Positions 3,730-63,259 of a DNA stretch of 64,000 bases are shown in pieces. The notes under the pieces are model-generated. The model was given only the letters and a program-made list of their open reading frames with translations. It made no database searches and was not told the DNA's origin. Location: IMG/VR virus record IMGVR_UViG_3300011008_000003. One strand, written 5' to 3'. The translations under genes and the position numbers were made by a program. Position 1 is the first letter of the stretch, and every line of letters starts with the position of its first letter. The DNA comes from a virus. Lineage: Duplodnaviria > Heunggongvirae > Uroviricota > Caudoviricetes.

Positions 3730-4000
3730 TCAGTTCTTCCCTTTCAAATGCCTTAATCATCTTATCGAAAAGAAAATCATAGATTTTCGTAAGATATTCA
3801 TCGACATTAGTTACAGTAGTATTAAGAATATTTACATAAATCTTAGCCGCGAAAGAAGGCTTGATGGAAATATAGCCACAGTAAGCCATCTCGGAAATGA
3901 ACAAGGCATAATAATCCTGTAATGTTCTATTCCCGATACCATCAAACACTTCTTCTAGGTTTTCTTCAGCTTCAACAATATTTTTGTATATCTCTTCCAT
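3710..4000 (-). CDS. Hypothetical protein (96 aa)
   Basis: ORF overlapping neighbours, start coupled to the clpP stop. Confidence 0.65.
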   Translation of the reverse strand: MEEIYKNIVEAEENLEEVFDGIGNRTLQDYYALFISEMAYCGYISIKPSFAAKIYVNILNTTVTNVDEYLTKIYDFLFDKMIKAFEREELNETGNT

Positions 4001-4713
4001 TAAATCATCTTTGCTGAAATTTTATCAATTATTCCAAGCTTCTTTGCCTCGCTTGCAGACATATAGTTGTCATACGAGGTAAGCTTTCTAAGTTCATCGA
4101 GGCTCTTGCCAGTCTGCTTCTTAAAAATCTTATTCATCGTATCGGTCCATACCTGCAATTCGTGCTGGATAATATTTATATCGTCAAGCTTGCCACCGAC
4201 TTCGGTAATGCCAGCCTGGTGAATCATAATACGAGAGCTCGGGAAAGCATAGCGGTGACCAATTGTACCGGATGCAAGAATGACAGAAGCCATAGAGCTG
4301 CACGGACCAATACAAATAGTATTAACTTCGATATGCTTAGACTTCAGCTTGTTAATACAGTCGATAATTGCAAATCCAACGTCGCATTCGCCACCTGGAG
4401 ACGAGATATAAATCGTAATCGGACGCTTTGTACCGTCGTCATAGAAACACAACTTCTGAATAATATGAATACCCAATTCCCAAGTAACTGGACCTGTCAT
4501 AAAGATAACACGGTTAGCTTCAAAGTAATTGTTACGAGCCATGTCAAAATAATTACCGAGTTCAGCAAGATTTATCGGCTGACCTTCGCCTTCATTCGGA
4601 TTTTCCGGATTTTCAGGCATACCAGGCATTTCCGGATTTTCCACCGGCTCCTGAACTTCATCATTACGAACTTTCTTGTACTTGCGCTTAGTTAATGTGG
4701 CTTTTAAGGACAT
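4000..4713 (-). CDS. clpP: ATP-dependent Clp protease proteolytic subunit
   Basis: NRVIFMTGPV, IYISSPGG, catalytic Ser motif GPCSSMAS, His motif RIMIHQ, Asp motif DNYMSASEAKKLGIID. Confidence 0.93.
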   Translation of the reverse strand: MSLKATLTKRKYKKVRNDEVQEPVENPEMPGMPENPENPNEGEGQPINLAELGNYFDMARNNYFEANRVIFMTGPVTWELGIHIIQKLCFYDDGTKRPITIYISSPGGECDVGFAIIDCINKLKSKHIEVNTICIGPCSSMASVILASGTIGHRYAFPSSRIMIHQAGITEVGGKLDDINIIQHELQVWTDTMNKIFKKQTGKSLDELRKLTSYDNYMSASEAKKLGIIDKISAKMI

Positions 4714-5202: not shown

Positions 5203-5461
5203 ACACTAATTTTTCCAGTTTTTGAGTGAATTCAGTTTTATTAGCAAAATCCGGCAATTTGGTTTCCGCTATAGCAAACCATTCTTGCAGAGTCTTACAG
5301 GTTTCCAGTTTTTCCGAAACTTTAGCTGCACTGTCGATAACTTCTTTCAGTGCTGCGAACTTTTTCGGATTGTTCGCAATAGAAAGCAAATCCTTATCTC
5401 TCTTAAAGAGAGGCGGGATATTAAACGGTTTGTGCTTTTTCGCCATCGGTTTCTCCTTCAA
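5162..5461 (-). CDS. Hypothetical protein (99 aa)
   Basis: ORF in operon. Confidence 0.65.
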   Translation of the reverse strand: MKEKPMAKKHKPFNIPPLFKRDKDLLSIANNPKKFAALKEVIDSAAKVSEKLETCKTLQEWFAIAETKLPDFANKTEFTQKLEKLVYEYSNESEGSDPA

Positions 5462-5885
5462 CGACTAATGATTCAGTATTATCCGTTTCAGGTCCGACGC
5501 TATCGCCTACGGCAACAGCACAAGTTTCAACACTGTTAGCTTGATGTAGTATTTCAGTTGCTACTTTATGCTGCCAGTCGTCGTAAACTTCCTTAATTGC
5601 GGAATCATAAAAATTACCGTTCTTAATATCGTCATAAGCAGCAAAGAGCTCATTACAGATTGTCTGCTTCAATGTATTGTTCAACGGCTGACAAAAACAA
5701 AGCTTATGCTTGTTATTCATATTTCGTGGATAACGTACATATCTGTAATTGTCCTTGATAATAAGTTCAAGGCCGGTAAGGAGTAGGCAGTTATCAAATG
5801 TAACTTGCCCGACTCCAACCACATCATGGAACTTTTTCTTATACGGGTAAACTTTTACCTTTGTAATTTCCATGATAACCACCAA
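5421..5885 (-). CDS. spoVG: SpoVG-family nucleic-acid-binding protein with acidic tail
   Basis: MEITKVKVYP...GVGQVTFDNCLLLTGLELI...YVRYPR...FCQPLNNTLKQTICNELFAAY follows the SpoVG pattern (ITdVrv...svtfD..fvi.gikvi....fvamPs....di.hPi....R..i...vl.aY). Confidence 0.75.
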   Translation of the reverse strand: MVVIMEITKVKVYPYKKKFHDVVGVGQVTFDNCLLLTGLELIIKDNYRYVRYPRNMNNKHKLCFCQPLNNTLKQTICNELFAAYDDIKNGNFYDSAIKEVYDDWQHKVATEILHQANSVETCAVAVGDSVGPETDNTESLVVEGETDGEKAQTV

Positions 5886-6308
5886 TTACAGACTATTTGC
5901 AAACTGTTCCAATTCGTAACCGGTCCTGTCATAAAGCTTAGGATCCAGAACGCAGTTCTGAGTCGTAATCATGATCAGAAGTTCGAATACATGCTTGATT
6001 TCCTCACGCGGTTCTGCGTCAGAAATGGCAATCATCTTAGTAATGACTTCTTCCGGAATCTTATGAATGAATGTAGATTCATTCTTATAGTCAATGAAAT
6101 GTTCCTTAAAGTCATTGAGATACCAAACAGCTTTTCCCAAATCCTTCTTAGGAGTACCCTTGTCACGATAACGCATACAATATTTCCAGCAATTACCCAA
6201 ATCAAAATTCAACCAACGAGTGACCTCGATTGCTTCAATTCCGGATTCATGAGAACGGTAATGCTTCGGCTTATTAATTTCTTCTTCAAGTGTCTGACCA
6301 TTAATCAT
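5886..6308 (-). CDS. DUF3310-like phage protein (nucleotide-kinase-associated family)
   Basis: INKPKHY..GIEAIEV...FDLGNCWKYCMRYRDKG..KKDLGKAVWYL motif. Confidence 0.8.
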   Translation of the reverse strand: MINGQTLEEEINKPKHYRSHESGIEAIEVTRWLNFDLGNCWKYCMRYRDKGTPKKDLGKAVWYLNDFKEHFIDYKNESTFIHKIPEEVITKMIAISDAEPREEIKHVFELLIMITTQNCVLDPKLYDRTGYELEQFANSL

Positions 6309-6688
6309 ATGGTTTCCTCTTTAGTTAATGCTTCAAGAATTTTCTTCTGTAGCTCTTTTTCGTTATCAGTATGTTCTTGAAGTTTCTGTTCATTTAAATA
6401 ATTAGTTAGGTCTTGTCGATTACGTTCCTTGGCCTGCATTACCCTGATAGGGATAAAGATTACAAGGAAATAACCGAAAGCGATGCCCAGATAAGGCAAG
6501 ATATTTTTGACGAAATATATAAGTGCACTTTGTACTGTATCGCCATATAGGCCAGTAATGCCAAGAACGAATGAATATACAATCGCGCCCGTTATAGAAA
6601 TCACCAAAACTGGTTTGGACGACTTTAGGCCGTCCACTAAATTCTTCTTTAAATTAGAGAGCTTCGTCATCTTCCAGATATGCCTCAA
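6305..6688 (-). CDS. Small membrane protein with two predicted TM helices
   Basis: Hydrophobic stretches VLVISITGAIVYSFVLGITGLY and ILPYLGIAFGYFLVIFIPI followed by a charged coiled tail. Confidence 0.7.
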   Translation of the reverse strand: MRHIWKMTKLSNLKKNLVDGLKSSKPVLVISITGAIVYSFVLGITGLYGDTVQSALIYFVKNILPYLGIAFGYFLVIFIPIRVMQAKERNRQDLTNYLNEQKLQEHTDNEKELQKKILEALTKEETI

Positions 6689-7622
6689 TATCTGTTTCAG
6701 GAATCATATAGCACTTCTTGTTGCTAGAGAGACCAGAAGCAGTCTTAACAGGAATCTTATATTCCTTATTGTTTTCCTTAGCGTCGATGTAGACAATACG
6801 GTCACCAACCTTGGAATGTTCAACACCGTCACCGACAAAAATAATTTCAGCTTCGACCAAATGACCTTCAGTATCGAGTTCTGGCACATAAATGCCAGCA
6901 GAGGTCTTCTTTTCACTAGAATCACGCGTAACGAGTACGTGCTTATCCTTAATCTTGATAATAGATTTCATATTTCCTTTCTCGTCTGTATCAAATACGA
7001 AGTCTACCAGAGAATCCGGAACTTCGTAGAATTTTTCCTTTGTTACCTTACCATCAGCGCCCTTAATCGGAAGCGTAATCTGAATGGAACTCATTTCAGC
7101 AAACGAAACCTTTTCACCAATGTTGCAATGACACGGAACAACAGTATTCGTTTCAGGATTATAAGTACCTGGACCCTGCATAAAGACAGTACCGGAAATA
7201 TTATCGATAGAACGCTTGATTTCAGGAATAACAAGACCACCAAGCGAAACCTTATCATCAGTTGTACGCTTGATGAGCATATAATTCTGAAGAACTTTCT
7301 TTACACCGACAACATTGTTCTCACCATCTTCTTCGAGAACCATAATAGCTTCATTCTGCTTCATCTTGAAAACCGGAGCCTTGGCATTCTTAAGCTTAAT
7401 AGGCTTAGCTACACCTGGATTGTAAACAATAAGGTCACCGACATTAAGATTTACAGAAACATGCTGATTGAATTTCTTATTTACACGACCAGTACCGATA
7501 CCGACCACACGACCATAAGCCATCGGCAAAGTACCGATATTCGGCAAAACAAGTCCACCACTAACAAGCTTGTTAATTGACGTATTTTCTTCGACTAAAA
7601 TATTAAAGTCGACAACTTTCAT
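6654..7622 (-). CDS. groES: Co-chaperonin with three tandem GroES/Cpn10 domains
   Basis: Three repeats with mobile-loop motifs SGGLVLP, LGGLVIP and SAGIYVP, each followed by G.V...G.G and V/IGD.V/I segments. Confidence 0.85.
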   Translation of the reverse strand: MKVVDFNILVEENTSINKLVSGGLVLPNIGTLPMAYGRVVGIGTGRVNKKFNQHVSVNLNVGDLIVYNPGVAKPIKLKNAKAPVFKMKQNEAIMVLEEDGENNVVGVKKVLQNYMLIKRTTDDKVSLGGLVIPEIKRSIDNISGTVFMQGPGTYNPETNTVVPCHCNIGEKVSFAEMSSIQITLPIKGADGKVTKEKFYEVPDSLVDFVFDTDEKGNMKSIIKIKDKHVLVTRDSSEKKTSAGIYVPELDTEGHLVEAEIIFVGDGVEHSKVGDRIVYIDAKENNKEYKIPVKTASGLSSNKKCYMIPETDIEAYLEDDEAL

Positions 7623-7631
7623 TAGTTACCT

Positions 7632-8291
7632 CTATACTTTTAATAGGAAATCTTCTTTGTTAAATTTAGCAAAATTTGCATGGCAATCGTTGGTCAATAA
7701 AATTTTTCCGTCTTTTTCTATAATGCTCTTTTCCGAGCTGTTGCCATAATGCCAAATATTTATATCAGAATAATCAATATTCATTTCGTCAGGATGATAG
7801 TATGTAATAACAATATTAGGAGTAGGTGTAGTATTTATAACGTTTTCTACCCGTGAAACTTCATCGCTAAATATACTTATTTTATCGTCCGTCCACCACT
7901 TCCAGGAGGAAATTTTTTCTTGCATTGAAAAGCCCATAGCACCGCCGATATTGACTCCAAAACGTTCTGTACAAGTACCGTCGAGTCTAACTGGATTACA
8001 TTTAGTTTTCTGTGGGCAACGAAGTCTATTCTTAACATTTTCAAATTTATTAGCAAGCGGTATATCGGAATTCATATCACTACCACCATAAACATAAAAT
8101 ACGCCCCTGTATCTTTGAGCGAGGCGTATTAAAAACGAGGACTCAATCTCGTCGAATTCCGATATACCACCGGCAATGCAGACAAAATCTGCAGGGACGA
8201 AATATTCATCAATAAACTTATCGTAAAGATCACCTTTACGAACCCTATTTGTATAGGGCAAGTTTAGATTATTGATGAAATAACAGTCCAT
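7632..8291 (-). CDS. Metallophosphoesterase-like protein (degenerate)
   Basis: Layout DFVCIAGGI / VFYVYGGSD / IWHYGNS parallels calcineurin-like phosphoesterase motifs, but metal ligands are largely replaced. Confidence 0.45.
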   Translation of the reverse strand: MDCYFINNLNLPYTNRVRKGDLYDKFIDEYFVPADFVCIAGGISEFDEIESSFLIRLAQRYRGVFYVYGGSDMNSDIPLANKFENVKNRLRCPQKTKCNPVRLDGTCTERFGVNIGGAMGFSMQEKISSWKWWTDDKISIFSDEVSRVENVINTTPTPNIVITYYHPDEMNIDYSDINIWHYGNSSEKSIIEKDGKILLTNDCHANFAKFNKEDFLLKV

Positions 8292-9501: not shown

Positions 9502-10575
9502 ATGGCATTCGATAACGAAATTATAGAAGAAAATTTACTTCCAGGTAGAGATCCGGTCGGATTCCCTCCGCATCCTGTTCCTCCGCCACCGCCTCCTCCT
9601 TCTGATAGAGGCCGTTTGAAACCTATTCCTCCTGGTCCGAAGCCGCCTGTGCCTCATGGACCTGGACCTGAACCGTTTCCACCTGGTCCTATTCCTCCGG
9701 GACCTGGGCCAAGACCTCCTATGCCTCCTGGTCCTAGCCCATTCCCGCCTGGTCCTCCGAGACCTCGTCCTGTAGAACCTCCTCCTCCGTCACCGAACTG
9801 TGACCCTGTTAGGATGTCTACAGAAATTCAGAATATGGCTCAGATGAGAAACTACATCAAGATGATGCTTGGTTCTCCGGTTATCTGTATCGAAATTAGC
9901 GATGAACAGCTGAATTATATCATCGGTGACGCAGTTCGTTATGTCCAGCGTTATTATTACGGTATGGGTAACTATCGTGACTATCTGGTTATGGAACTTG
10001 TTCCTGGACAGACACATTATAAGATTTGTCAAGAACTAGAAAGTGTTGTAGATTTCCAGACTGCATCATGGATTGGCGATATTAACGAATTGTTCACTTT
10101 GCCGCATAATGCCCTTTATGATTCCGTTATGAGTATGAACAGTTCGACAATCTATCGTGGTGCTTGTTACGGTAACAGTTCTGGTTTCGGTGATGTTCTT
10201 GGTTCCTGGAACGCTGCTTTGATGTGGCTTGAACAGGCTAAAATCGATTTCGGTGAGTCTTATCAGGTACGTTATAACGAAAAAGAAAAGGAATTGTCGA
10301 TATGGCCTTCTCCTCGACACCCAGTTAGAGGAATTATGGAAGTCTATAAGCGCCAACGTTCTGTAAAAATCTTTAACGACATCATGTTTAGAAAGCTCGT
10401 CGTGGCTATGGCTGGTATGAGATGGTGTAATTTCCTTAGAAAGTATTCAATTACGATTGCCGGTGGCGGTCAGTTGAATGCAGATAGCCTCTATTCTAGC
10501 TATAAAGAAGAATATGATGCATGTATTGAACAGATTCGTCTTGAAAGCACCCAGGGTGAATTCTGGATGTCCTAA
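9502..10575 (+). CDS. 13: Neck protein (T4 gp13-like) with ~100-aa Pro-rich N-terminal extension
   Basis: RNYIKMMLGSPVICIEISDEQLNYIIGDAVRYVQRYYYG and C-terminal WCNFLRKYSITIAGGGQLNADSLY match gp13. Confidence 0.85.
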   Translation: MAFDNEIIEENLLPGRDPVGFPPHPVPPPPPPPSDRGRLKPIPPGPKPPVPHGPGPEPFPPGPIPPGPGPRPPMPPGPSPFPPGPPRPRPVEPPPPSPNCDPVRMSTEIQNMAQMRNYIKMMLGSPVICIEISDEQLNYIIGDAVRYVQRYYYGMGNYRDYLVMELVPGQTHYKICQELESVVDFQTASWIGDINELFTLPHNALYDSVMSMNSSTIYRGACYGNSSGFGDVLGSWNAALMWLEQAKIDFGESYQVRYNEKEKELSIWPSPRHPVRGIMEVYKRQRSVKIFNDIMFRKLVVAMAGMRWCNFLRKYSITIAGGGQLNADSLYSSYKEEYDACIEQIRLESTQGEFWMS

Positions 10576-23673: not shown

Positions 23674-24293
23674 TAGATACCTTCAGGATTCAAGTTAATT
23701 TCAGCTATACCATTAAATACACCTGGACCAAAAGCACCGACATAAGGAACAGGCGTAGTGACACACATTTTAATCGCACTGTCAAGTCGTTTTTCAATTA
23801 TATTCCAAACTTCCTTTGTAGCATCCGGCGTAACTTCGGGGTCAGGATTAATCTGCTGTAATTCCAGCATCATATCTTCGGCTATAATCGGAAAATGCGA
23901 AGTCACCATTGCACCAGTTGCAATTCCTGGAATTATCGGTGCGGCAGTCCATGTAACAATTTGACCGGTAATCTTAATACCGATATAATTGAATAAATTT
24001 ACGAGACCGCCTGCAGGAACAGAAACTGCAGCAATTACTTCCGGAACAAGTAACATAAAAGATTCGAAAATCGGGCGGCAAATTTTTAACGGCGTTGCAG
24101 GAGTACCGAGAACGGCCGTAGCACCTGAAGGATAAGTTACAGTTCCGTAGATATTACAATAGACTTTTGAAAAATAAATCATCAGCCATTCATTCAATGC
24201 GTCTGTCATTGCCGTAATACTGGCTAACTGATTAGTCGTCGAATCAAGTGCAGAAAATTTAGGTTTCAAGCAATCGTCGTATAAGCTAATCAT
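23673..24293 (-). CDS. Hypothetical protein (206 aa)
   Basis: ORF translationally coupled between terL-C and the hub gene. Confidence 0.75.
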   Translation of the reverse strand: MISLYDDCLKPKFSALDSTTNQLASITAMTDALNEWLMIYFSKVYCNIYGTVTYPSGATAVLGTPATPLKICRPIFESFMLLVPEVIAAVSVPAGGLVNLFNYIGIKITGQIVTWTAAPIIPGIATGAMVTSHFPIIAEDMMLELQQINPDPEVTPDATKEVWNIIEKRLDSAIKMCVTTPVPYVGAFGPGVFNGIAEINLNPEGI

Positions 24294-25045
24294 TTAAAGT
24301 CCGCCCAGAAGTCTTCATTGTATTCGCCCGCATCCGCCATCATATCTATAGTCATTTCATCCTGTTCTTTCTTGTCCTCGACATGTCTGATATTTTCCAT
24401 ATCGATTTCCGGCTGCATAGTTGCATAGACTGCCCAGTAGAGCGCGGAAACAGTATCGTCGTGACAACCCTTAACAGCTTTAAAGACGTTAGGCGTATTT
24501 TGTTCTTCGAATGTTGACAATTCCTTAATAGTAACTGCGTTATGAACTTTAAGGAATCCGGCATCCATAACTCGCTGTAATTCCATACATGCATCAAGCT
24601 TGGAACGCTTGTCTGCCTTGGTACCGAGGCCGTGTCCGGCTTTTTCGGTATTAATCATATTCGTATTCTCGAGCGTATACCAAAGTTCTTCAGCTACCTG
24701 CTTACCGACATCGTTATTTTCAAGGATGTAATAGGCGTTATTGTACATCTTTGAAATAAAGTCGATTTTTCTTGAGAACTCGCCAGGTTTGACGGTATTC
24801 GAACGATAGATTGCAACCTGTTCCATATCGTTCTTCGCACGGATTTCGATAACCTGTACACATGCATAGTCACCGCCGACACCTGAACAACAGTCAACTC
24901 CCATGACATATAAAGCGCCTGGTTTCGGCCTTGCATAAATTTCAAGAGTGAGGTCTTCAAATAATGTTTCGATAGGTTCTGATTCCATAAGCTTCTCGAG
25001 ACATTCAGAAGAAATAAGTGTCGGAGAAGAACCAATGAACGAGCA
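24290..25045 (-). CDS. 17: Large terminase C-terminal nuclease extein (T4 gp17-like); part of ORF 24290-25348
   Basis: CSFIGSSPTLIS junction; RNase H-like motifs MGVDCCSGVGGDY, LENNDVG, HDDTVSALYWA; ATPase domain absent. Confidence 0.9.
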   Translation of the reverse strand, partial: CSFIGSSPTLISSECLEKLMESEPIETLFEDLTLEIYARPKPGALYVMGVDCCSGVGGDYACVQVIEIRAKNDMEQVAIYRSNTVKPGEFSRKIDFISKMYNNAYYILENNDVGKQVAEELWYTLENTNMINTEKAGHGLGTKADKRSKLDACMELQRVMDAGFLKVHNAVTIKELSTFEEQNTPNVFKAVKGCHDDTVSALYWAVYATMQPEIDMENIRHVEDKKEQDEMTIDMMADAGEYNEDFWADFK

Positions 25046-25348
25046 GTTATGATTTATAAGCCCGTTATTCGTAGAATAGAGCCCGCCGTCAACATTTACA
25101 GGAGTATATACGGTTCGTTTTCCGGTTTCCTCTACAGAAATAACCGTACTTTCACTAAACTGTGTATTCTTTACCAAGTCTCCCGGTTTTAACTTGCATG
25201 CCTCAATCTCTCTACCGTCGGGCAATGTAAGCTTATGGTCGTCAGAGCACTTGATTTCGCAATTATCGAAAACTACATGTAATGTATCTGCAAGTTTTTT
25301 AGAGAAGCCTTCGAACTTCTTGTATTTTTCACCGAGTTTGATAAACAT
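25046..25348 (-). mobile_element. C-fragment of an atypically split intein (101 aa) at the N-terminus of terL-C
   Basis: Block B IKCSDDH, block F VYTPVNV, block G terminal HN followed by +1 Cys; block A missing; ORF has its own Met directly after the regA stop. Confidence 0.88.
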
Positions 25349-38768: not shown

Positions 38769-39308
38769 ATGTCGATTTATTCTAAAAATTACGTAAAGGG
38801 ATATTTTATCCCTAAGCATCCGGAAAAATGTCTGAATATTCATCCGGAAAATTCAAAATACATTGTCGGGCGCAATGCAAAAGTTTCGAATTGTACTTAT
38901 CGTAGTTCTTGGGAATTGAAGTTTATGAAGTTCTGTGATAAGTTTGATTCGATTCTTGAATGGGGTTCTGAAATACTTGAAGTTCCATATATTAACGAAG
39001 TTGATGGAAAACAGCATACGTATGTTACTGATTTCTTTTTTGTTTGTCGTGATAAATTAGGGGCAATAAATAAGTATATTTTAGAAGTAAAGCCTAAGTG
39101 TCAGATTGCTGTTCTGAATGAGAATAACCAGATAATATATCCTGACCCGCCGAAGAAAAAGTCTCAGAAAGCTATACGTAACTGGCAAGAACGTTGTAAT
39201 GTTTTGAGAATCAATAATTCTAAATGGACATATGCACGTAAGTGGTGTAAAGAAAACGGATATATTTTTAAGGTTCTTTCAGAGGAAGAAATCGGAATAA
39301 AATATTAA
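38769..39308 (+). CDS. 4: Head completion nuclease (T4 gp4-like, TnsA-N fold)
   Basis: YRSSWELKFMKFCD....EWGSE...PY....H.YVTDF...LEVKPK...N..KW..AR.WC..NG..FKVLSE. Confidence 0.9.
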   Translation: MSIYSKNYVKGYFIPKHPEKCLNIHPENSKYIVGRNAKVSNCTYRSSWELKFMKFCDKFDSILEWGSEILEVPYINEVDGKQHTYVTDFFFVCRDKLGAINKYILEVKPKCQIAVLNENNQIIYPDPPKKKSQKAIRNWQERCNVLRINNSKWTYARKWCKENGYIFKVLSEEEIGIKY

Positions 39309-43089: not shown

Positions 43090-43947
43090 ATGGGTATAGA
43101 ATGTAAGATATGTCATAACTGGTTTAACGATGTCAACGAATTGACTTTGCATATAAGAAGGGACCATAAAATAACGGTCCAATCTTATTATGATACTTAT
43201 GTTAGAAAACCAGATGAGGGTAAATGTAAGAATTGCGGGAAACCGACGAAATTTAATGGTTATAGTAAGGGATATTCTGAATTCTGTTCGGTATCATGTG
43301 CAAGAACGAAACAGATTGAAGACCAAGCTTCAGAATATACGTGTGCGATATGCGATGAAGTAATTAAAGGAAAGAACGTGAGAGCTACGATGATTGCATT
43401 CGCGACTCATATTCGAAATGCACATGGGATTTATGAACCTAGATTGTATTACGATAAATTTGTTAAGAAAGAAGGCGAAGGAAAATGTCCGATTTGCGGT
43501 AAGGAAACAAAGTTCCAGTCTATCTCGAAAGGATATGACCAGTATTGTTCTGTAGAATGTGCCGCCGCTGGTGCAAAACAAGACGAGAATTCCCATAATT
43601 CAAAAGTTCATTTGACAGCAGTGCTTAAAGAAAAAGCAAGAAATTTTGCGGAGAAAGTTGCTGAAAAGTACCGTAACTTTTTACGTAAAGAAAAGAAATC
43701 GGGTTTTTCTGATGTTCGTGAAAATACGATTGTACAAGAAAATATAAAAGACGAAAGAATGGTCGAGACTGTTGACGGAAGTATGGCACAGGTTAAAACC
43801 GAAATTTCTATGTCGACACAACGTGACCCATGGATGGGAACACAGACCAAATATACTCCTAGAATGGAAAATTGCTATAAAAATCCATATTTTGATGAGA
43901 TTATCGACGACGGCGAAGGTATCAACGAAACAGAGTGGTGTCGGTAA
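43090..43947 (+). CDS. Tandem zinc-finger protein
   Basis: Two copies of CxxC..H...H followed by YYD.(Y/F)V.K..EGKC..CGK.TKF....KGY..(F/Y)CS..CA. Confidence 0.8.
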   Translation: MGIECKICHNWFNDVNELTLHIRRDHKITVQSYYDTYVRKPDEGKCKNCGKPTKFNGYSKGYSEFCSVSCARTKQIEDQASEYTCAICDEVIKGKNVRATMIAFATHIRNAHGIYEPRLYYDKFVKKEGEGKCPICGKETKFQSISKGYDQYCSVECAAAGAKQDENSHNSKVHLTAVLKEKARNFAEKVAEKYRNFLRKEKKSGFSDVRENTIVQENIKDERMVETVDGSMAQVKTEISMSTQRDPWMGTQTKYTPRMENCYKNPYFDEIIDDGEGINETEWCR

Positions 43948-47328: not shown

Positions 47329-50091
47329 TTAATTATCTTGATAATATTGAACGTTAATTATATTACGTAAGCAAGCACGTTCCATTTGTGTGCTGAAATT
47401 CGTAATATTATTGTTATTGTCGAGAATGGAGTCACAAATACCAGGTTTAATCTTCGGATAAATATCCATAATCAAATTAGTGATATGTTCCCATTCACCG
47501 TCATAGATATTAGAATCTGCCTTAATTTTACCAGCATAATAGGTATCGATAATCTTCGGAACAAGGTAGTTCCAGAAAGAATTTTCAGATAATGTCATTT
47601 CATTATCGAGACTAATGCTACCTTTACGCATAATGGTTTCTTCACGTGTATTAACATTACTGGAAGTAACAGTATAAGGCAAATAAATTGCACGCTGGGC
47701 AGAAGTAATAGTATAAAGCTTATTAGCAAGCCAGTCATCGACAAGCGATTGAATAGATTTAATTTGGTCAGGAGCCAGATTATATTCATCGGTCTTATAC
47801 GGAGAGAATGTCGTACTAGAATAGAAGTCATTAGTATTCGGAAGAACGATGTTGAATTGTTCAATATTATCAAAATCAACCGTACCATCTTGTAATGCTT
47901 TCGGAGTCAAGACGATAAAGTTTTCATTTTCTGAAACTTCAGCAGAGAATGTATTAGTTTGAATAATAACTTTAGTATCAGCACCGCTTTTAGTTTCGGT
48001 TTTTAGAATGTCGATTTCGATATTTCTTTCTTCAAACATCTTAGCGAACATCTTATTACCGTAAGCATCAATATTCGGAATCTTAACTTCATTCCACCAG
48101 AAATCACCATGGTCTCTTTTCAATTGTGCTTCTTTTGTAAGTCCACCAGCAGATTCAGTATAGCTATTGAGAACTGTTGTATAGGTTTCAAGAGATTTGT
48201 TCTGAATGAATTCATAACCCGGAGAAACCTTCTTATTCCAGAAATACTTCTTAAGGTCAGATTTAATAAGTTCAGAAACTTTGAAATCAATATCAGTAGA
48301 AACAGTTGCCGGATGTTCGTTATAAAGCTTTATAATTTCAGATTTATAAATCTTTTTATGCGTAGAAACACGAGAATCGAGATATTCATAAACACGATTC
48401 TTCATTTCGTTCATGTATGCTTCAATATCAGTTAACGGCTTAACATAGACAGTACCGACAGCATCAAAATATTGAACATATGGAGGCAAAGAGAAGATAA
48501 CAGAGTTAATTTCAGAATTAAATTGACAATTCTTATTGATTAACTGAATATTACGTAGCCATTGGTCTTGCGGATTTTCAGAATATTGACAATTATAGAA
48601 ACCCTGATAAGACTTTAGCAATTTGATATAGTCGCAAAGATGTTCAAGATACTTGTTGCCATAAAGCGAGAATGTATCTGTTGTATTGTAGTCGTCTTCT
48701 GTAAGAACATTTCTAACTGTCCAGTTACCATTTGGGTTCTTAAGATATAAATGACCCATGAGGCAGTAAATAATGTTATTCTGACAAAGCGGATGCAGGA
48801 ATCCGATTGTATCTTCAATATCGTGCTGACCGAATACCATGGCAGTCTGAACTGTCATCGGGCTAGAAAGTGCACGGAAGTAAGACATATAATCGTCACG
48901 TGTAATAAGCTTGCCACGAGAAGAGAAATATGCAGGAGCATTGATTTTCATGCTTGCCTGACTTTCAAAATTTTCACCACCGTAAATGTCAGAATTGATA
49001 ATGAACTGAACGTTATTAGTTAAAGAAACAATACTACCCTTGACAGAAACGTTAATCTGGTTGTTATGCGTCATAACGGCACCATTTACGCCGACAGTAT
49101 TAGCTTCCTTGCCTTTTGTAGTAAGATATTTAACATAAAGATTATCCTTATCAGACTTTAAACCGATACTAGCAATATTCGGTTCAGAACTGAAAGTAAC
49201 ACGAACAGTTTTATCCGGGTTCGTATCGATGAGACAAATTTTAAGCGGTTCTTCTGGAAGAGTACCATTTAAATTGATAATGTCGTCACTGAGGTAAATG
49301 GATTGGGTTTCAATCTTATAGATATTTTCCTTATTGAATGCGTCAACTTCGTCAGCGCCGATACCTACCTGACACCAGCTGAGGGTTGGGTCATAGACAT
49401 TTTCAATAAATGCATACGGGTCACGCTTACCATACCAGTTAGAGAAATTGACATCATCGACATCATAGAACTGACAAGGTTCGCCAAGTTTCTTGATATT
49501 GGCAGTTCCGAGGAATTCAACAATTTTCTGTTCTGCCTGGAAACATTTAATCGGGGTTGTATTAACTGTATTATAAAGGTTGATGCCGATTAACGGGATA
49601 TATTCGCTTGATTCTTGTGGAACGGCAAAAGTCAAATCTCTATACCAGTCAGAAGAGGTACCGTTGATAATATCTTCTTCGGTAAATACATAGCTATATC
49701 CGTTGTCGAGAATAAACGGATTTCCGTTGAACATAAGCTTCGTAGTATCACGGTTAAAGAAAACTTCAGTACCAGCAGTCAATGTAGCTGGAAGAGGACC
49801 TTTAATTCTGATAACAAGTTCACAACGTGCAGGTACTGGACGTCTCGGATTATATCCAAGATTTTTACAATGCTTGATTATGCTAGAATCGAGCTTAGCC
49901 GTAGAAATAAAACCTTCTTCAGCGGTACGCTGGATATAGAAGTTGGTCATATCGGTAACAGCGGCAAGCATTTCAGTGAACATGCCGAAAATCGTTGCCG
50001 AGGTTATGTTTTTAAAGCGCGGATCTGATTTTAATCTTGCTTGAAACTGCTGTACAAGCTGATTATATGTAACGTTCAAGTAATTAAGCAT
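47329..50091 (-). CDS. 6: Baseplate wedge subunit (T4 gp6-like)
   Basis: FGMFTEMLA..TDMTNFYIQRTAEEGFISTAKL.SSIIKHCKNLGYNPRRPVPA; GGENFESQASMKINAPAYFSSRGKLITRDDY. Confidence 0.9.
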   Translation of the reverse strand: MLNYLNVTYNQLVQQFQARLKSDPRFKNITSATIFGMFTEMLAAVTDMTNFYIQRTAEEGFISTAKLDSSIIKHCKNLGYNPRRPVPARCELVIRIKGPLPATLTAGTEVFFNRDTTKLMFNGNPFILDNGYSYVFTEEDIINGTSSDWYRDLTFAVPQESSEYIPLIGINLYNTVNTTPIKCFQAEQKIVEFLGTANIKKLGEPCQFYDVDDVNFSNWYGKRDPYAFIENVYDPTLSWCQVGIGADEVDAFNKENIYKIETQSIYLSDDIINLNGTLPEEPLKICLIDTNPDKTVRVTFSSEPNIASIGLKSDKDNLYVKYLTTKGKEANTVGVNGAVMTHNNQINVSVKGSIVSLTNNVQFIINSDIYGGENFESQASMKINAPAYFSSRGKLITRDDYMSYFRALSSPMTVQTAMVFGQHDIEDTIGFLHPLCQNNIIYCLMGHLYLKNPNGNWTVRNVLTEDDYNTTDTFSLYGNKYLEHLCDYIKLLKSYQGFYNCQYSENPQDQWLRNIQLINKNCQFNSEINSVIFSLPPYVQYFDAVGTVYVKPLTDIEAYMNEMKNRVYEYLDSRVSTHKKIYKSEIIKLYNEHPATVSTDIDFKVSELIKSDLKKYFWNKKVSPGYEFIQNKSLETYTTVLNSYTESAGGLTKEAQLKRDHGDFWWNEVKIPNIDAYGNKMFAKMFEERNIEIDILKTETKSGADTKVIIQTNTFSAEVSENENFIVLTPKALQDGTVDFDNIEQFNIVLPNTNDFYSSTTFSPYKTDEYNLAPDQIKSIQSLVDDWLANKLYTITSAQRAIYLPYTVTSSNVNTREETIMRKGSISLDNEMTLSENSFWNYLVPKIIDTYYAGKIKADSNIYDGEWEHITNLIMDIYPKIKPGICDSILDNNNNITNFSTQMERACLRNIINVQYYQDN

Positions 50092-50200: not shown

Positions 50201-51826
50201 GTGAATTTAAATTTTCTTAATCCATTTAGTAGCAGCTTCTTAAAAACTTCGCCGGAACACAGTGAAATCCGTGCAAGGGAGGCAGCTCGTAACTCATACG
50301 GTAAAATCGAAGACACCATTGACTGGTCTGCTTTGTCAAACGCCTACGGGAATACATTTGATGATCCCGCTAATCCGCGAGACACAACCCAGATTTATTT
50401 TGACCAAATTTATATAAACAAGTGGCAGAAGATTAGCTGGTATCGTTCCATGGCGATGTACCCGCTTATCGGTAAAGGTTTGAATATTATTACCGACGAA
50501 GCAGTTTGCCCAGACGCACTTGGTAATGTCGCAATGTTTGACATCAAGGAACCGTATAAGCAGAAGTTTACTGCTACAGAATATGCAACCTTGAAGATGG
50601 AATTTGATTATATTGTTGAATGTGTATTTGGACAGGAAAATATATGGAATTTGTTCCATAAGTGGTTACAGGATGCCGAACTCTTTTTGGAAATTGCGTT
50701 GAATGACAATGGAGATAAAGTGGTCGGCATTAATACATTGGCACCTTATGCGATGTTGGTCATTTATGACAGGGATTCCGATAATATTAACGGATTTATC
50801 GAAAATGTAAACTATCTTAATCAGGCACAGATACAAGACAAGAATACTGAAATTCGTCGTTTCTTGCCGAACCAGATTGCATATGTTCGTTATCCGATTA
50901 CTTGGAATAACCGTAATGACGTTCGCGGACATTTGGAACGTTCTATTCGACCGTTGAACCAGCTTAGAAATATTGAAGATGCATTGACGGTTTATCGTAT
51001 TACTCGTGCAACTGAACACCGTGTATTTAACATTTATACTGGTCGTCGTCCGCCTGACAAGGCTGCTGCTTATGTTCAGGAAGTTCGTAATAAGTATCGT
51101 AAGAATTTGACTCTCGATAATACTACTGGTATGGTCAATGCAGTCAAGAATACTCAGGCTATGACTGAAGACTTCTTCTTCTCGAAGGACGACTCTGGCC
51201 AGCAGTCCTCTGTTGAAACATTTGCTTCCGGTTCTACATTTGACGGTCAGATTCAAGACCTTTATATGTTCCAGAAGATGGTTATGGACGGTATGTTTAT
51301 TCCGCAAAATCGTTGGAAGTCTGATGAACTTAGCGGTGCAAATTATAATCAGGGTATTGAATCTGCAAACCTTGAAGAAGTCGCATTCCAGCGTTGCTGC
51401 CGTCGTCTTCGTAGGGCTTTTGCTGATGTAATTAGGCAGGTATTCCTTGTTCATCTTCGTGTTCGTGGATATAAGGAAAAGTTCCTCGATAAGGCAATCT
51501 ATAATATCGATCTTCATCCGGCAACTGACTTCGAACGTATGCGTGACCTTGCTCTTGCAGAAAAACGTGGTTCTGTTCTTTCTATGCTTTCTCAGTTCTT
51601 GCCGACGACAACGAATATTAAGCCGGGTAGTGAAGAACTTGCTCCGTTGTTCTCTAAGCAATACTTCATGGAAAAGATTCTTGGTATGTCCACACAGGAT
51701 ATTCTTATGAATAATAAGATGCTTGAACAGGAAATCAAGCAGATGAATGAAGAAGCTGAAGCCGCAGCTGCTGCAGGTGGCGGAGAAGGTGAAAATCCTG
51801 ATGAAGGCGGAGACTTAGGATTTTAA
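50201..51826 (+). CDS. 20: Portal protein (T4 gp20-like), GTG start
   Basis: YRSMAMYP.I..G..II.DEAV, LERSIRPLNQLRNIEDALTVYRITRATEHRVFNIYTG, MTEDFFF. Confidence 0.95.
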   Translation: MNLNFLNPFSSSFLKTSPEHSEIRAREAARNSYGKIEDTIDWSALSNAYGNTFDDPANPRDTTQIYFDQIYINKWQKISWYRSMAMYPLIGKGLNIITDEAVCPDALGNVAMFDIKEPYKQKFTATEYATLKMEFDYIVECVFGQENIWNLFHKWLQDAELFLEIALNDNGDKVVGINTLAPYAMLVIYDRDSDNINGFIENVNYLNQAQIQDKNTEIRRFLPNQIAYVRYPITWNNRNDVRGHLERSIRPLNQLRNIEDALTVYRITRATEHRVFNIYTGRRPPDKAAAYVQEVRNKYRKNLTLDNTTGMVNAVKNTQAMTEDFFFSKDDSGQQSSVETFASGSTFDGQIQDLYMFQKMVMDGMFIPQNRWKSDELSGANYNQGIESANLEEVAFQRCCRRLRRAFADVIRQVFLVHLRVRGYKEKFLDKAIYNIDLHPATDFERMRDLALAEKRGSVLSMLSQFLPTTTNIKPGSEELAPLFSKQYFMEKILGMSTQDILMNNKMLEQEIKQMNEEAEAAAAAGGGEGENPDEGGDLGF

Positions 51827-54758: not shown

Positions 54759-57700
54759 ATGGCTAAATATTCAGTTCCAGGAATCCGTTTTACTGAGATA
54801 GATAACACTATCCGTGCGGAATCCGATCCGGGCTTGGGCATTGGTGCAATCGTTATGGCATCAAATAAAGGCCCTGTTAACCAGCGTGTGGTTACGAAGA
54901 ATTATAACGAATTTACCGAAATCTTCGGTAAACCGGAAACTCTTGAGAGTTACGGTCACTTCGCTGCTGAGAATTACTTCGCTAATTCCAACCAGCTTTT
55001 CGCAGTTCGTGCCACAATGGGTGACGAACAGTATGCACAGATTCAGTATAGCTACCGTGGCGCTCCGGTGACTGCTACCAACCAGTCTATCGATACTGCC
55101 AAGTTGACTTACGTCGACAAGGAAGCTGACAATAATCTTGTACTTTTGCAGCCGCTTTCTGCGGTTACTGTCGTTCAGTCTATGATTTCTGGCGGCGACT
55201 GGCAGTACGATGGCGGTGAAGAAGACCCGGATGGTGGTCAGTATGGTTTTGCTCTTAAGCAGAAGGCTTATTACAACCTGTTCTCTGACTTCAAGAAGGA
55301 AACTGAAGACCTTATCGTTTTCAAGGGTACAACCGACGACGGTTGGAAGGGCACTATCACTGAAGAAGGTGTTCGTGTTATTTACCCGACTTCTGTCGAT
55401 GTTAACGGTAATGACCCGCAGCTCGATACTAAGTTGAACTTCAGTGACGAAGGTTGGGAATCTTCCGCTGCACCTGAAAGCATTAGCATTGTTCCGAAGG
55501 GAAGCTTGTATAATATTGTCAGCATTGATGTCCCGGCATCTGCAACGCTTGACAAGGAACGCAACAAGATTACATTCTATAGCGATATTTCTGCAACTTC
55601 TGCTATTAGCGGTTGGACAGTTTCTGGTGTCGATTTCAAGGATGTCTTCAAGGATGATTATTTCCTTGGTGATTATGACTTCGAAACCGCTGACCCGGCT
55701 ACTGACAATTACGGTATTCTTGAAGCTCAGCGTATGGAAATCATGGACTGGGATCAGCCGGACCTTAAGAAGACTTACTACGTCGATAGCAAGGCATTTG
55801 AAGATACCTGTGCTCAGGCTTTCGGTATCAAGTATACTGAATGGTTCAATATCGATTCTAGCTATGCTATTGTCGGTAAGAAAGAACTTGACGAAGATGA
55901 AGGAACAGACTTCGTATTCTGTTCTGCAGTCTCTGCGATGTATACCAACAAGACTCAGAAGGAAGAATGGCTCGGTAACGATGATATTAAGGAACGTACT
56001 CCGCGTGAAGTTATCGTCGACATGATGGATTCTTACGGATGTAACGACATTTCTGATATTAACGATTACTACTACATGAAGTATCACGATGTATTTGCTG
56101 ACGCTACCATCGAAAAGATTGTCAAGGAACGTCCGGATTACTACAGCTCCAAGAAGCCGAAGAACCCGCCTGCAGACTATAATCCGCAGAATTTCCGTGA
56201 ACATGTTGAAGAATATCTGTTCTGGCTTTATTCCGAAAAGGGAACAAACGTTCTTACTAAGGAAAGCGTCTATCTCGCTGACGATACAGAACTTGTTAAG
56301 TTGCCAATCCAGGCCGGCTATACTATCAAGAAGGCCGATGACGAATATGTTACTTTGAATAATATTGTTGCTAGCCCGACTTCGTTCCTTGTCAACTCTG
56401 TCGATAAGACTTATGCTGACGGTTATACGGTTACGACCGACGCTGAAGATGAACCGGGTATCGGCGATATTGAACGTTATAATTCTGTGTTTGCTGACCA
56501 GCTTGTTATCGCTTCTATCGGACCTGGTGAATACGGTAACGACATCGGTGTTTCTATTATCACGACTGAATGTGAAAACATTCCGGCTCTTCATCACCAG
56601 AATGCCTTCCAGTGGAAGGATAAGTATGATGATGAAGACCAGATTAAGAAGGACACTTCTCCGTATAATCAGAACCCGCTCAACCTCATTTGGAAGAAGG
56701 TTTTCCGTATCAATGTCTACATCAAGACTAAGACTCAGACCGCTGAAGCCGCTTGGGGTACAGGTATGGATGCTCTCTTGAAGGATCCTGCAGAATCTTG
56801 GTGGGTTTCTACTGACCCGTATGCAAAGGACGGCGAAGGTAACAGCCTTTACGCTCCGGTTGTAATTAACGGTCATTCTGACTACATCTATGTTTCTCGT
56901 TCTTCTGCATCCGCCGCTGCTAACAAGAAGGGTGAATACGTCCAGCCGAACCAGACTTTCGCAATTTACAACCTCACCGGTGGTAAGAATTCTACCAAGA
57001 ATACGATTTCTGAAAAGGCTGCTGCTCTTAACTTCTATAACGATAGACAGCGTGCTAAGTTTGATATTCTCTTCAACGTCGACGCGGTTGATACCTTCAA
57101 CGGTCGTCAGAAGTATAACGCTCTCCAGCGTAAGATTGCTCAGATTGCTGCATCTCGTACCCAGGATATTGGTGTTGTTCAGGTTACTTCCAAGGCTGCA
57201 AAGACTGCTAAGCAGATGATTTCGGAAGCAAAGAACTTCTCCTTCAACAAGGGTGATTACGTAGCTGAATACGGTGGTTATGATAAGTATTACAACTCTG
57301 ACCTCGCTGCATGGATTTACCTGCCGAAGTCTGTTGCTGGTGCTTGCTCTATGGCTTACTGTGATAATTACTTCTATCCGTGGATGGCTCCGGCTGGTGT
57401 CGAACGCGGTACGATTAATTACACTAACGGTCAGTTGCTCCGTCTTACCGACGACGAAATCGGTCAGCTCTATGACAATAACGTTAACACGACTCGTGAC
57501 TGTGGCGGTTACGGTGTGGTTCTTTGGGGTCAGAGAACGGCTCTCAAGAAGAACAGCCTGCTCAACCGTATCAATGTCCGTCGTTGCTTGAACTATATCG
57601 AGAAGATTCTTGAAAACAAGATGACTCCGTACCTCTTCATGCAGAATAGTGTTAACACTCGTAGCTCCGCAAGAAATGATATTCGTAGCTTCCTCGAAAG

Positions 57701-57872
57701 AGTCAAGGCTGCTGAAGGTATCTATGACTTCGACTTGAGTGTTACTGCGGACCCGGATGATCCGACAATCATGAACGTTGCAATTCAGATTCAGCCGACA
57801 AGCGCAATCGAATTCATCGACATCAAGATTATCGTCAACCGTCAGTCTGGTGTTACTGTTGCTGAAGAGTAA
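54759..57872 (+). CDS. 18: Tail sheath protein (T4 gp18-like) with large insertion
   Basis: SVPGIRFTEID, KGPV, IFGKP; C-terminal WMAPAGVERG, LYDNNVN, VVLWGQRT, RINVRRCLNYIEK, PTSAIEFI. Confidence 0.95.
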   Translation: MAKYSVPGIRFTEIDNTIRAESDPGLGIGAIVMASNKGPVNQRVVTKNYNEFTEIFGKPETLESYGHFAAENYFANSNQLFAVRATMGDEQYAQIQYSYRGAPVTATNQSIDTAKLTYVDKEADNNLVLLQPLSAVTVVQSMISGGDWQYDGGEEDPDGGQYGFALKQKAYYNLFSDFKKETEDLIVFKGTTDDGWKGTITEEGVRVIYPTSVDVNGNDPQLDTKLNFSDEGWESSAAPESISIVPKGSLYNIVSIDVPASATLDKERNKITFYSDISATSAISGWTVSGVDFKDVFKDDYFLGDYDFETADPATDNYGILEAQRMEIMDWDQPDLKKTYYVDSKAFEDTCAQAFGIKYTEWFNIDSSYAIVGKKELDEDEGTDFVFCSAVSAMYTNKTQKEEWLGNDDIKERTPREVIVDMMDSYGCNDISDINDYYYMKYHDVFADATIEKIVKERPDYYSSKKPKNPPADYNPQNFREHVEEYLFWLYSEKGTNVLTKESVYLADDTELVKLPIQAGYTIKKADDEYVTLNNIVASPTSFLVNSVDKTYADGYTVTTDAEDEPGIGDIERYNSVFADQLVIASIGPGEYGNDIGVSIITTECENIPALHHQNAFQWKDKYDDEDQIKKDTSPYNQNPLNLIWKKVFRINVYIKTKTQTAEAAWGTGMDALLKDPAESWWVSTDPYAKDGEGNSLYAPVVINGHSDYIYVSRSSASAAANKKGEYVQPNQTFAIYNLTGGKNSTKNTISEKAAALNFYNDRQRAKFDILFNVDAVDTFNGRQKYNALQRKIAQIAASRTQDIGVVQVTSKAAKTAKQMISEAKNFSFNKGDYVAEYGGYDKYYNSDLAAWIYLPKSVAGACSMAYCDNYFYPWMAPAGVERGTINYTNGQLLRLTDDEIGQLYDNNVNTTRDCGGYGVVLWGQRTALKKNSLLNRINVRRCLNYIEKILENKMTPYLFMQNSVNTRSSARNDIRSFLERVKAAEGIYDFDLSVTADPDDPTIMNVAIQIQPTSAIEFIDIKIIVNRQSGVTVAEE

Positions 57873-62284: not shown

Positions 62285-63259
62285 ATGGATAAAATCCTTG
62301 AAACACTCGCTCAGAAATTTACGGCCGAAGAGCTCAATGAAGTCAAGAAAATCATTGAGTCATCTGTCGACGAAAAAGTACAGGCGAAGTTAGATGCAGA
62401 AACAAAAATCGTTGCTAAGAAGGCAGAAGAATTCTGTCAGAAGAAGATTAAGGAAGCTGTAGAGAAGAAGACCGCTGAAATTGAAGAAATTGCCAATAAG
62501 TTCTGCGCAGAACGTTGCGAAGCTTTGAGCAAGGAAGCAAATGAAAAGGTCGAATCTTACAAGAAAAAGCTCGAAGAAACTTCTGAACAGTATATCTTCG
62601 AATACTTCGATCAGAAATTCCAGGAAAAGTACGGTAAGGAACTTGAAGCTATTGAAGAAAAGGTCATTACCGGTCTTGACAAGTATTTGGAATTCAACAT
62701 CAACGAAAAGATTAGCCCGGCTCTTATCCAGAAGACTGCCCTTTCTGAAACCTATGCTCCGATTATCGAAGGTATCAAGCGTCTCTTCGAAGACGAATAT
62801 GTCCCGATGGACCAGAGCGGTTCCAAGAAGATTCGTGAACTCAAGGCTGAAAATACTCACCTTGAAGAATCTCTCAAGAAGCAGCTTGACGAAAATATGC
62901 GTCTTGCTGAACTTGTAGAAAGCACTGGCAAGCGTTCTTTGATTTCCGAAAAGACTTCCGACCTCACTGCCGCTCAGCGTGTCAAGGTTAAGAAGTTCTT
63001 CAAGGAAAAGAGCCTTAACGAAACCAAGAAAGATATTGATGCGTACATCGAGATGATTCAGGAACAGACCGATTCTGTCGCTGCAATGCGTTATGAAAAG
63101 GACCGTCTCTTCGAACATCGCGAACGTCCTGTTCGCAAGACAAGCTATGTCGAAGATCGTACGAACGACCCGCTTAACGAAAAACGTGTCTCCAAGAAGC
63201 CTGAATTGAGCGCTCGCGAACGCATGTTGCTTGGTTCTGCAAACCTTTTGGACGACTAG
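62285..63259 (+). CDS. 22: Prohead core scaffold protein (T4 gp22-like)
   Basis: Coiled-coil K/E-rich protein directly upstream of gp23; VITGLDKYLE, IIEGIKRLFEDEYV, LISEKTSDLT. Confidence 0.85.
   Translation: MDKILETLAQKFTAEELNEVKKIIESSVDEKVQAKLDAETKIVAKKAEEFCQKKIKEAVEKKTAEIEEIANKFCAERCEALSKEANEKVESYKKKLEETSEQYIFEYFDQKFQEKYGKELEAIEEKVITGLDKYLEFNINEKISPALIQKTALSETYAPIIEGIKRLFEDEYVPMDQSGSKKIRELKAENTHLEESLKKQLDENMRLAELVESTGKRSLISEKTSDLTAAQRVKVKKFFKEKSLNETKKDIDAYIEMIQEQTDSVAAMRYEKDRLFEHRERPVRKTSYVEDRTNDPLNEKRVSKKPELSARERMLLGSANLLDD

Follow-up and report, generated by a model that had tools for sequence, protein, structure and literature searches.

A three-domain Cpn10 protein of a T4-like megaphage, a probable co-chaperonin for GroEL

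The lid of group I chaperonins is, in its textbook form, a homo-heptamer of GroES, and to our knowledge the only exceptions to it that have been studied are the two-domain co-chaperonins of plastids, whose fit to the seven positions of the chaperonin took years to explain. Here, we describe a gene for a single chain of three fused Cpn10 (GroES) domains, P0001, which lies on the minus strand of a 64,000-nucleotide stretch of viral DNA (the whole stretch is called the window below; IMG/VR record IMGVR_UViG_3300011008_000003, Caudoviricetes). Its sequence, its fold and its loop motifs all place P0001 in the Cpn10 family, and it is likely to be a co-chaperonin, that is a lid component, for the group I chaperonin GroEL of the phage itself and possibly also for that of the host. 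What stands out is the symmetry problem that this viral chain poses, together with a natural series of one-, two- and three-domain forms; the Cpn10 fold is well known and the three-domain architecture as such is not unique.

The closest described systems are the tandem co-chaperonins of plastids and apicoplasts (Cpn20/Cpn21, and Cpn20 and Cpn23 with Cpn11 in Chlamydomonas). Like these proteins, P0001 carries Cpn10 domains head to tail, each with its own mobile loop, and the arrangement predicted for adjacent domains is that of the Cpn23 chain in PDB entry 7EKQ; the problem of fitting such chains to a sevenfold ring is common to both. P0001 differs from the plastid tandems in having three domains rather than two, in being viral rather than organellar, in that one domain is without a roof hairpin and in that the complete phage relatives contain no gene for a single-domain partner. 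The definition of Cpn20, exactly two Cpn10 domains in an organellar protein, does not cover P0001, and a two-domain phage relative (P0025) exists. In Chlamydomonas the ring is closed by mixing two-domain and one-domain subunits (10.1101/432013; PDB entry 7EKQ).

A second group of comparable proteins are T4 gp31 and RB49 CocO, which are GroES substitutes that phages encode for use with the host GroEL; P0001 is likewise encoded by a T4-like myovirus, and its domain 3 resembles gp31 in the absence of the roof hairpin. However, gp31 is a single-domain protein that forms a homoheptamer and has a lengthened mobile loop, whereas P0001 has three domains, loops of GroES length and a recognizable Cpn10 sequence. 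The profile of the gp31 family (PHROG 931) matches domain 3 weakly (E 0.0044) and ordinary Cpn10 matches it better, and by sequence P0001 does not appear to belong to the gp31 family. Unlike the phages that encode gp31 or CocO, the phages with P0001-type proteins bring their own GroEL, as seen in the complete relatives. Covalent linkage of GroES has also been engineered: the linked modules reportedly still worked with GroEL, which would indicate that head-to-tail linkage does not preclude function, with seven modules per chain and therefore exact closure of the ring. Such a concatenate is artificial, whereas P0001 is natural and has three modules. In one study of engineered tandem groES, mutation of I25 in all seven subunits is reported to abolish the binding of GroEL (PMC5575113). 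Group I chaperonin genes are also carried by virioplankton phages (Marine et al. 2017, PMC5649160) and by phages EL (gp146), OBP and AR9, the chaperonins of which are described as independent of a co-chaperonin, as well as by the phages studied here, and the virioplankton GroEL is close to Bacteroidetes GroEL, as is that of the P0001-type phages. The virioplankton GroES genes are single-domain and mostly lie in an operon with groEL (PMC5649160), whereas two or three domains are found here and the co-chaperonin gene is about 74 kb from groEL. Fused or tandem GroES is not mentioned in that paper, the text of which contains neither 'fused' nor 'tandem'.

The reading frame of P0001 is free of stops over 322 amino acids, as seen in the list of open reading frames (ORFs) and the translation. 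The Pfam Cpn10 profile (PF00166, curated cut-off 21.1 bits) matches three stretches of the chain with a total of 84.6 bits, and each third scanned singly lies above the cut-off, with 37.4 bits for residues 1-105, 32.6 bits for residues 100-215 and 30.2 bits for residues 210-322. PHROG 3188, 'co-chaperonin GroES', also matches three times, and a GroES β-barrel fold is seen in the AlphaFold2 (AF2) models. The preliminary description of this locus, made from the letters alone and without naming the strand, had proposed one chain with three complete Cpn10 units and had expected three Pfam matches; both hold, and the full length is kept in 21 clusters of homologues. The three loop motifs named there, SGGLVLP, LGGLVIP and SAGIYVP, are present and align with the canonical GroES mobile loop. 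Automatic pipelines already label the P0001 family 'co-chaperonin GroES (HSP10)'. Three separate genes or a frameshift artefact were considered and rejected, as the ORF is continuous and full-length in the 21 clusters (with 298 and 110 members in the two that were opened). An antisense ORF of 357 amino acids (6507-7580, plus strand) overlaps the P0001 gene and exceeds it in length. We consider it to be a shadow ORF, since it is the minus-strand frame to which the homologues and the Pfam profile correspond, and a longest-ORF rule chooses the wrong strand at this position.

The 21 homologous clusters were obtained from a search of 5.8 billion proteins and show 48-98% identity; two of them are shorter fragments, and the others have lengths of 319-329 amino acids. 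When 19 of the family sequences are aligned, 63 columns are invariant, and the mean pairwise identity is 0.61 for domain 1, 0.59 for domain 2 and 0.62 for domain 3; because the three domains diverge equally, none of them looks like a decaying remnant. The exact P0001 protein is encoded on WOLF17-1_SAMN05930743-S002 scaffold_2 of ENA ERZ28655833, a metagenomic scaffold of 424,080 bp, and near-identical proteins are encoded on contigs of 353-425 kb, so that the source is a megaphage; the family is carried by T4-like phages of roughly 415-435 kb. The family is known only from metagenomes, and the sample series suggest those of animal gut and rumen. No match was found among GenBank phages, either by tblastn of P0001 or by megablast of the surrounding 8 kb. 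A triple or tandem GroES in phages was not found in the literature search, which is weak evidence of absence as most subscription journals lay outside this search. The three-domain arrangement is not unique to the phage family, since a profile search carried out exhaustively on 1.84 billion representatives also returned the unrelated proteins P0036, P0042 and P0114. P0036 (368 amino acids) is Ala/Gly-rich with an N-terminus that resembles a targeting peptide, and it may be eukaryotic; P0042 and P0114 (300 and 307 amino acids, the latter at L143:6001-6924) are on contigs of about 10 kb with neighbours that are not recognizable. A 541-residue gene beside the unrelated three-domain gene of contig L143 was considered as a Cpn60 and was rejected by Pfam, so that it does not provide an independent operon of GroEL next to a triple GroES.

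Focusing on the domain alignment, the three mobile loops of P0001 have the canonical length of GroES and each contains glycine followed by a hydrophobic triplet; GGLVL, GGLVI and AGIYV align to GGIVL of Escherichia coli GroES. The triplet of domain 1 is LVL in P0001 and LTI, LEL or LTL in other lineages, that of domain 2 is LVI, IVI, IIM, IYI or IHI after an invariant GG (G128 and G129), and in the loop of domain 3 the residue after an invariant G-I-Y is V, L or I. Domains 1 and 2 each have a roof β-hairpin of normal length, whereas that of domain 3 is gone through a deletion of 12 residues. The roof hairpin is also absent from some accepted members of the Cpn10 family, such as gp31 and some viral GroES. 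Among virioplankton GroES, both deletions of the roof hairpin and mobile-loop triplets with polar residues have been reported (PMC5649160). The extended roof or insert loops that had been ascribed to domains 2 and 3 in the preliminary description were not borne out: the extra residues lie not in the roof but in the C-terminal β-hairpin, which exceeds that of canonical GroES by 7-9 residues. Of the accompanying suggestion that the folding chamber could be enlarged, the part built on roof inserts falls with them, and the argument now rests on the gp31-like loss of the roof in domain 3.

The full chain was modelled with AF2 using the family alignment and domains 2 and 3 were modelled separately, which gave a pLDDT of 83 and a pTM of 0.80 for the full-length model and a pLDDT of 84 and a pTM of 0.77 for the model of the two domains. 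Residues 1-210 (domains 1 and 2) superimpose on the two-domain Cpn23 chain 7ekq_Q with a Z-score of 13.0 and an r.m.s.d. of 3.4 Å over 176 residues, and the model of domains 2 and 3 superimposes on the same chain with a Z-score of 10.4 and an r.m.s.d. of 3.4 Å over 161 residues. This Cpn23 chain belongs to the seven-domain Cpn11/20/23 ring (PDB entry 7EKQ). Compared with GroES chains, domain 2 gives Z-scores of 7.5-8.2 when taken from the full-length model and of 9-10 when taken from that of two domains; the r.m.s.d. values go down to 1.2-2.1 Å over 75-83 residues, and domain 3 compared with T4 gp31 (PDB entry 1g31) gives Z-scores of 7.5-7.6 with an r.m.s.d. of 5.2 Å over 90-91 residues. Both neighbouring domain pairs are predicted by the models to pack as adjacent positions of a GroES ring, from which it follows that the chain would form an arc of about three sevenths of the ring. 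In the lid, the three domains would stand side by side, with the hydrophobic triplet of each mobile loop facing the apical domains of GroEL.

The relatives of P0001 suggest how the three-domain chain arose. The profile search returned two-domain relatives of 224 amino acids (P0026 and P0027) and complete single-domain relatives of 102-109 amino acids with the same acidic tail (P0028, P0030, P0035 and P0039). On contigs of 424 and 428 kb the syntenic slot is occupied by two adjacent genes for Cpn10 proteins of 109 amino acids, P0337 and P0028, which are 14 nt apart, and in the complete genome G003 it is occupied by the two-domain protein P0025. P0028 is also very abundant, being found in 517 blocks of the sequence collection in the index. 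In a maximum-likelihood tree of individual domains, which did not include plastid Cpn20, domains 1, 2 and 3 are each monophyletic (support 97/91, 100/99 and 100/100, respectively); domain 1 falls together with the single-domain proteins of A-type (P0337 and P0030) and domain 1 of the two-domain proteins, whereas the B-type single-domain protein P0028 and domain 2 of the two-domain proteins are the relatives of both domain 2 and domain 3. The simplest history suggested by this grouping is that genes A and B gave an A-B fusion, in which B was then duplicated to give A-B-B'. In such a course, adjacent single-domain genes would have fused and their acidic C-terminal tails would have turned into linkers. 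The fusion looks to have arisen independently of plastid Cpn20, from single-domain genes of the phages. The internal domains still end in the ancestral acidic tails (...VLEEDGENN and ...FDTDEKGN), and the linkers are therefore the old C-termini.

These linkers also invite the reading that P0001 is a precursor from which cleavage at the acidic linkers would release three separate GroES subunits that enter ordinary mixed heptamers, so that the fusion would only couple their expression. The origin of the linkers as C-terminal tails, the ancestral state of separate genes and a protease gene nearby are in line with such processing, and the linker between domains 1 and 2 keeps an L-x-E motif, in which L96 is invariant and E98 is nearly invariant. 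This motif resembles the cleavage motif of the T4 prohead protease. However, L-x-E also occurs in the last strand and tail of stand-alone domains, so that it is explained without cleavage, and the linker between domains 2 and 3 is without it. The fusion moreover persists over deep divergence in both two-domain and three-domain forms, and the models pack the linkers as ordered strands. Processing of this kind is considered to be highly improbable.

A partner for P0001 was found in two relatives, G002 and G003, which are complete genomes with direct terminal repeats and a CheckV completeness of 100%. G002 (415,750 bp) has a three-domain Cpn10 and G003 (424,163 bp) has a two-domain Cpn10, and in each of them a single Cpn60 gene is present, at a distance of about 74 kb from that for Cpn10; the search for a phage groEL elsewhere in the genome, which had been proposed as a check, thus gave one GroEL in each of the two complete relatives. 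No further Cpn10 gene (PF00166, E up to 1) and no gp31-like gene (PHROG 931) was found in either genome. The phage GroELs P0023 and P0024 match a reconstructed Fibrobacteres-Chlorobi-Bacteroidetes GroEL with 684 bits and that of E. coli with 602 bits, and they are classified by sequence as canonical group I GroEL proteins. Their C-terminal tail is Met/Gly-rich and GGM-like, and the hydrophobic residues of the groove that binds GroES and substrates are kept (Y199, Y203, F204, L234, L237, L259 and V263, with V264I, in E. coli numbering). Phage Cpn60 proteins form a large family, in which there are many clades of 65-99% identity; P0294 and P0323 are Cpn60 proteins on contigs of 421-424 kb that are not provably on the record which carries P0001, and a metagenome scan for Cpn60 returned only the clades of G002 and G003 and bacterial GroELs. 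P0237, a Cpn60 that is 94% identical to the GroEL of G002, carries the NCBI label 'MAG: chaperonin GroEL [Methanobrevibacter sp.]' and has a longest contig of 418,880 bp. This contig is most likely to be a megaphage binned into an archaeal metagenome-assembled genome, and it is not evidence for an archaeal host. In another contig (ENA XIEF21-1 scaffold_1, L146:4636-5427), a gene-free gap of about 790 nt adjoins gp46/gp47-like genes about 4.5 kb upstream of a phage groEL.

The likely partner of P0001 would be the canonical GroEL encoded by the megaphages, with the host GroEL as a possible second one, and we infer that P0001 binds to GroEL; as a guess, its clients may be structural proteins of the phage, for example its T4-like capsid protein. 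A related alternative is that P0001 is a take-over factor, a lid that binds the host GroEL abnormally tightly or incompletely and either blocks host folding or redirects GroEL to phage clients, while not cycling as a normal co-chaperonin does. Covalent linkage increases avidity, three domains alone cannot form a normal lid and T4 gp31 also retargets the host GroEL, all of which would suit such a factor, but the phages' own GroEL points to a self-contained folding system and all three loops keep the normal length and motifs of GroES, and we regard a take-over factor as very unlikely.

Several observations weigh against a role of P0001 as a lid for GroEL. A ring of seven positions cannot be tiled by units of three domains, and a gene for a single-domain GroES was not found in the complete relatives G002 and G003. 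The window contains no Cpn60 gene and no second copy of Cpn10. The middle residue of the domain 1 triplet is polar or charged in some lineages (LEL and LTI). The r.m.s.d. of 3.4 Å cannot separate sevenfold from sixfold or eightfold packing, and AF2 may reproduce the ring packing from its training. The phage chaperonin EL gp146 has been reported to work without a co-chaperonin, as cited in PMC5649160.

The tiling problem, which had been raised in the preliminary description, is real. For a co-chaperonin of GroEL, the closure that is ranked first is the combination of two chains with one single domain, which may be host GroES or a free domain 3 translated from Met218; the arrangement with host GroES (2×3+1), which had already been named, may be counted among the live options. 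A mismatched oligomer that would be tolerated by GroEL is ranked second. For Cpn20 homo-oligomers, a mismatch with the chaperonin is reported as tolerated (10.1101/432013). The one gene slot of related megaphages offers a natural series of two genes, a two-domain fusion and a three-domain fusion, each accompanied by a canonical GroEL, and this series bears on the degree of symmetry mismatch that group I chaperonins can accept, on whether viral and host subunits can mix in one lid and on whether an asymmetric, partly roofless lid alters the chamber for large phage proteins. The set of GroEL, multi-domain GroES and ClpP is also an addition to the proteostasis functions in the known megaphage repertoire.

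A further possibility is that the gene gives two products, the full chain and a free, roofless domain 3 from Met218, which would make a 2×3+1 lid without host GroES; such a lid would lack symmetry, as three of its positions would be roofless and the dome perhaps open in part, and it would serve the phage GroEL and possibly also cap ClpP. Met218 is invariant in 19 of the 19 aligned sequences, and its ATG is a relic of the ancestral start codon of B'. It may also work as a translation start: a purine-rich run before it is kept in the lineages examined (AGGA/GAGG-like, with AAAGAGGGTACT in the 56% clade) and resembles the real ribosome-binding sites of the phage (AGAGGT and AAGGAAA), and the ancestral intergenic counterpart in the split genes of L144 is AAGGAAATTTAACT-ATG. 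At the junction between domains 1 and 2, the equivalent start has decayed to GTA or ATT and has no such run. Against an internal start count the short spacing in most lineages, the Lys, Glu and Gly codons of the linker, which are purine-rich anyway, and the two-domain relatives, which are without an internal ATG. The arrangement with two products is rated as rather unlikely.

The neighbourhood of the gene raises one more alternative, namely that P0001 caps the heptameric ClpP of the phage (or of the host) via its mobile loops and regulates proteolysis, either as its sole role or beside GroEL. The best structural match of P0001, 7ekq, is a multi-domain co-chaperonin, and this Cpn11/20/23 complex is seated on the ClpP core of the Chlamydomonas chloroplast, which it caps and inhibits (bioRxiv 10.1101/2021.07.26.453741; PDB entry 7EKQ). 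A genuine ClpP gene lies 2 kb downstream of the Cpn10 gene on the same strand in every lineage examined, this linkage being kept in G002, G003, L032, L036 and L144; a single ClpP is encoded by each of the genomes G002 and G003, in neither of which a Clp-type AAA+ partner (PF07724) was found. In addition, the T4-type scaffold gene of the window suggests a head-maturation module elsewhere, and the ClpP therefore need not be the prohead protease. However, gene proximity is the only link between the two proteins, PHROGs classes ClpP among 'head maturation proteases', the phages carry GroEL, which is the standard partner of GroES, and ClpP poses the identical problem of sevenfold tiling. A ClpP cap is thus judged to be unlikely, and a lid for GroEL is preferred as the role of P0001.

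The Cpn10 gene is part of a tightly packed operon on the minus strand that is common to all relatives, with the order 97-residue gene, 219-residue gene, Cpn10, gene of about 121 residues and DUF3310, followed by a SpoVG-like gene, three small genes and ClpP; further on are an eIF-1A-like gene, which was seen in the relatives L032 and L144, and DNA polymerase B. The positions of these and other features are collected in Table 1.

Table 1. Features of the window and of the split Cpn10 slot of a relative (positions refer to the window unless a contig is named)
Feature	Position	Strand	Remarks
Three-domain Cpn10/GroES gene (P0001)	6654-7622	-	322 aa; stop codon 6654-6656
Domain 1 (A-type; aa 1-103)	7314-7622	-	Mobile loop about aa 17-34 (SGGLVLP); roof hairpin of normal length
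Domain 2 (B-type; aa 104-217)	6972-7313	-	Loop LGGLVIP; C-terminal hairpin longer than in canonical GroES
Domain 3 (second B-type, B'; aa 218-322)	6657-6971	-	No roof hairpin; loop SAGIYVP; acidic tail LEDDEAL
Met218 ATG and preceding purine-rich run	6969-6983 (ATG 6969-6971)	-	GAGAAAGGAAAT; candidate internal translation start
Ribosome-binding site before the ATG	7623-7640	-	TAGAGGTAACTA; within the last codons of the upstream gene and the 9-nt gap
219-aa upstream neighbour	7632-8291	-	9-nt gap to the Cpn10 gene; calcineurin-like metallophosphoesterase fold (structure match to Metallophos clusters of the Atlas, TM 0.85)
About 121-aa downstream neighbour	6305-6670	-	Start overlaps the end of the Cpn10 gene; 17-nt overlap in relatives
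DUF3310 gene (PHROG 'nucleotide kinase')	5886-6308	-	Conserved in all relatives
SpoVG-like gene	5421-5873	-	38 bits; conserved in all relatives
ClpP-family protease	4000-4713	-	Pfam CLP_protease 151.5 bits, profile positions 14-180 of 182; 2 kb downstream of the Cpn10 gene
gp13-like neck protein	9502-10575		
Terminase-like	24290-25348		
Baseplate wedge	47329-50091		
Portal	50450-51826		
Tail sheath	54759-57872		
T4-type scaffold protein	62285-63259		
Split GroES genes	L144:5657-6330 (ENA LIUQ22-1 scaffold_4, 428,078 bp)		A-type P0337 and B-type P0028; also in L145

The 219-residue gene lies directly upstream in every lineage, whether the slot is split, two-domain or three-domain, and it is probably co-transcribed with the Cpn10 gene. 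Its product has no Pfam or PHROG match, and on reading its sequence the usual metal-binding motifs DxH, GD and GNH do not appear to be present. The product of the downstream gene of about 121 residues, which has no family match in Pfam or PHROG, is read as a membrane protein from its hydrophobic sequence. A scan for promoters and terminators around the operon performed no better than on shuffled sequence, and the motif AGAGGT also precedes the start codon in relatives. The window as a whole is a section of a T4-like myovirus, several genes of which are listed in Table 1. Within the region of the structural genes are also a protein with a TnsA-like endonuclease domain (38769-39308, plus strand, 60.6 bits) and a homing-endonuclease-like protein (43090-43947, plus strand).

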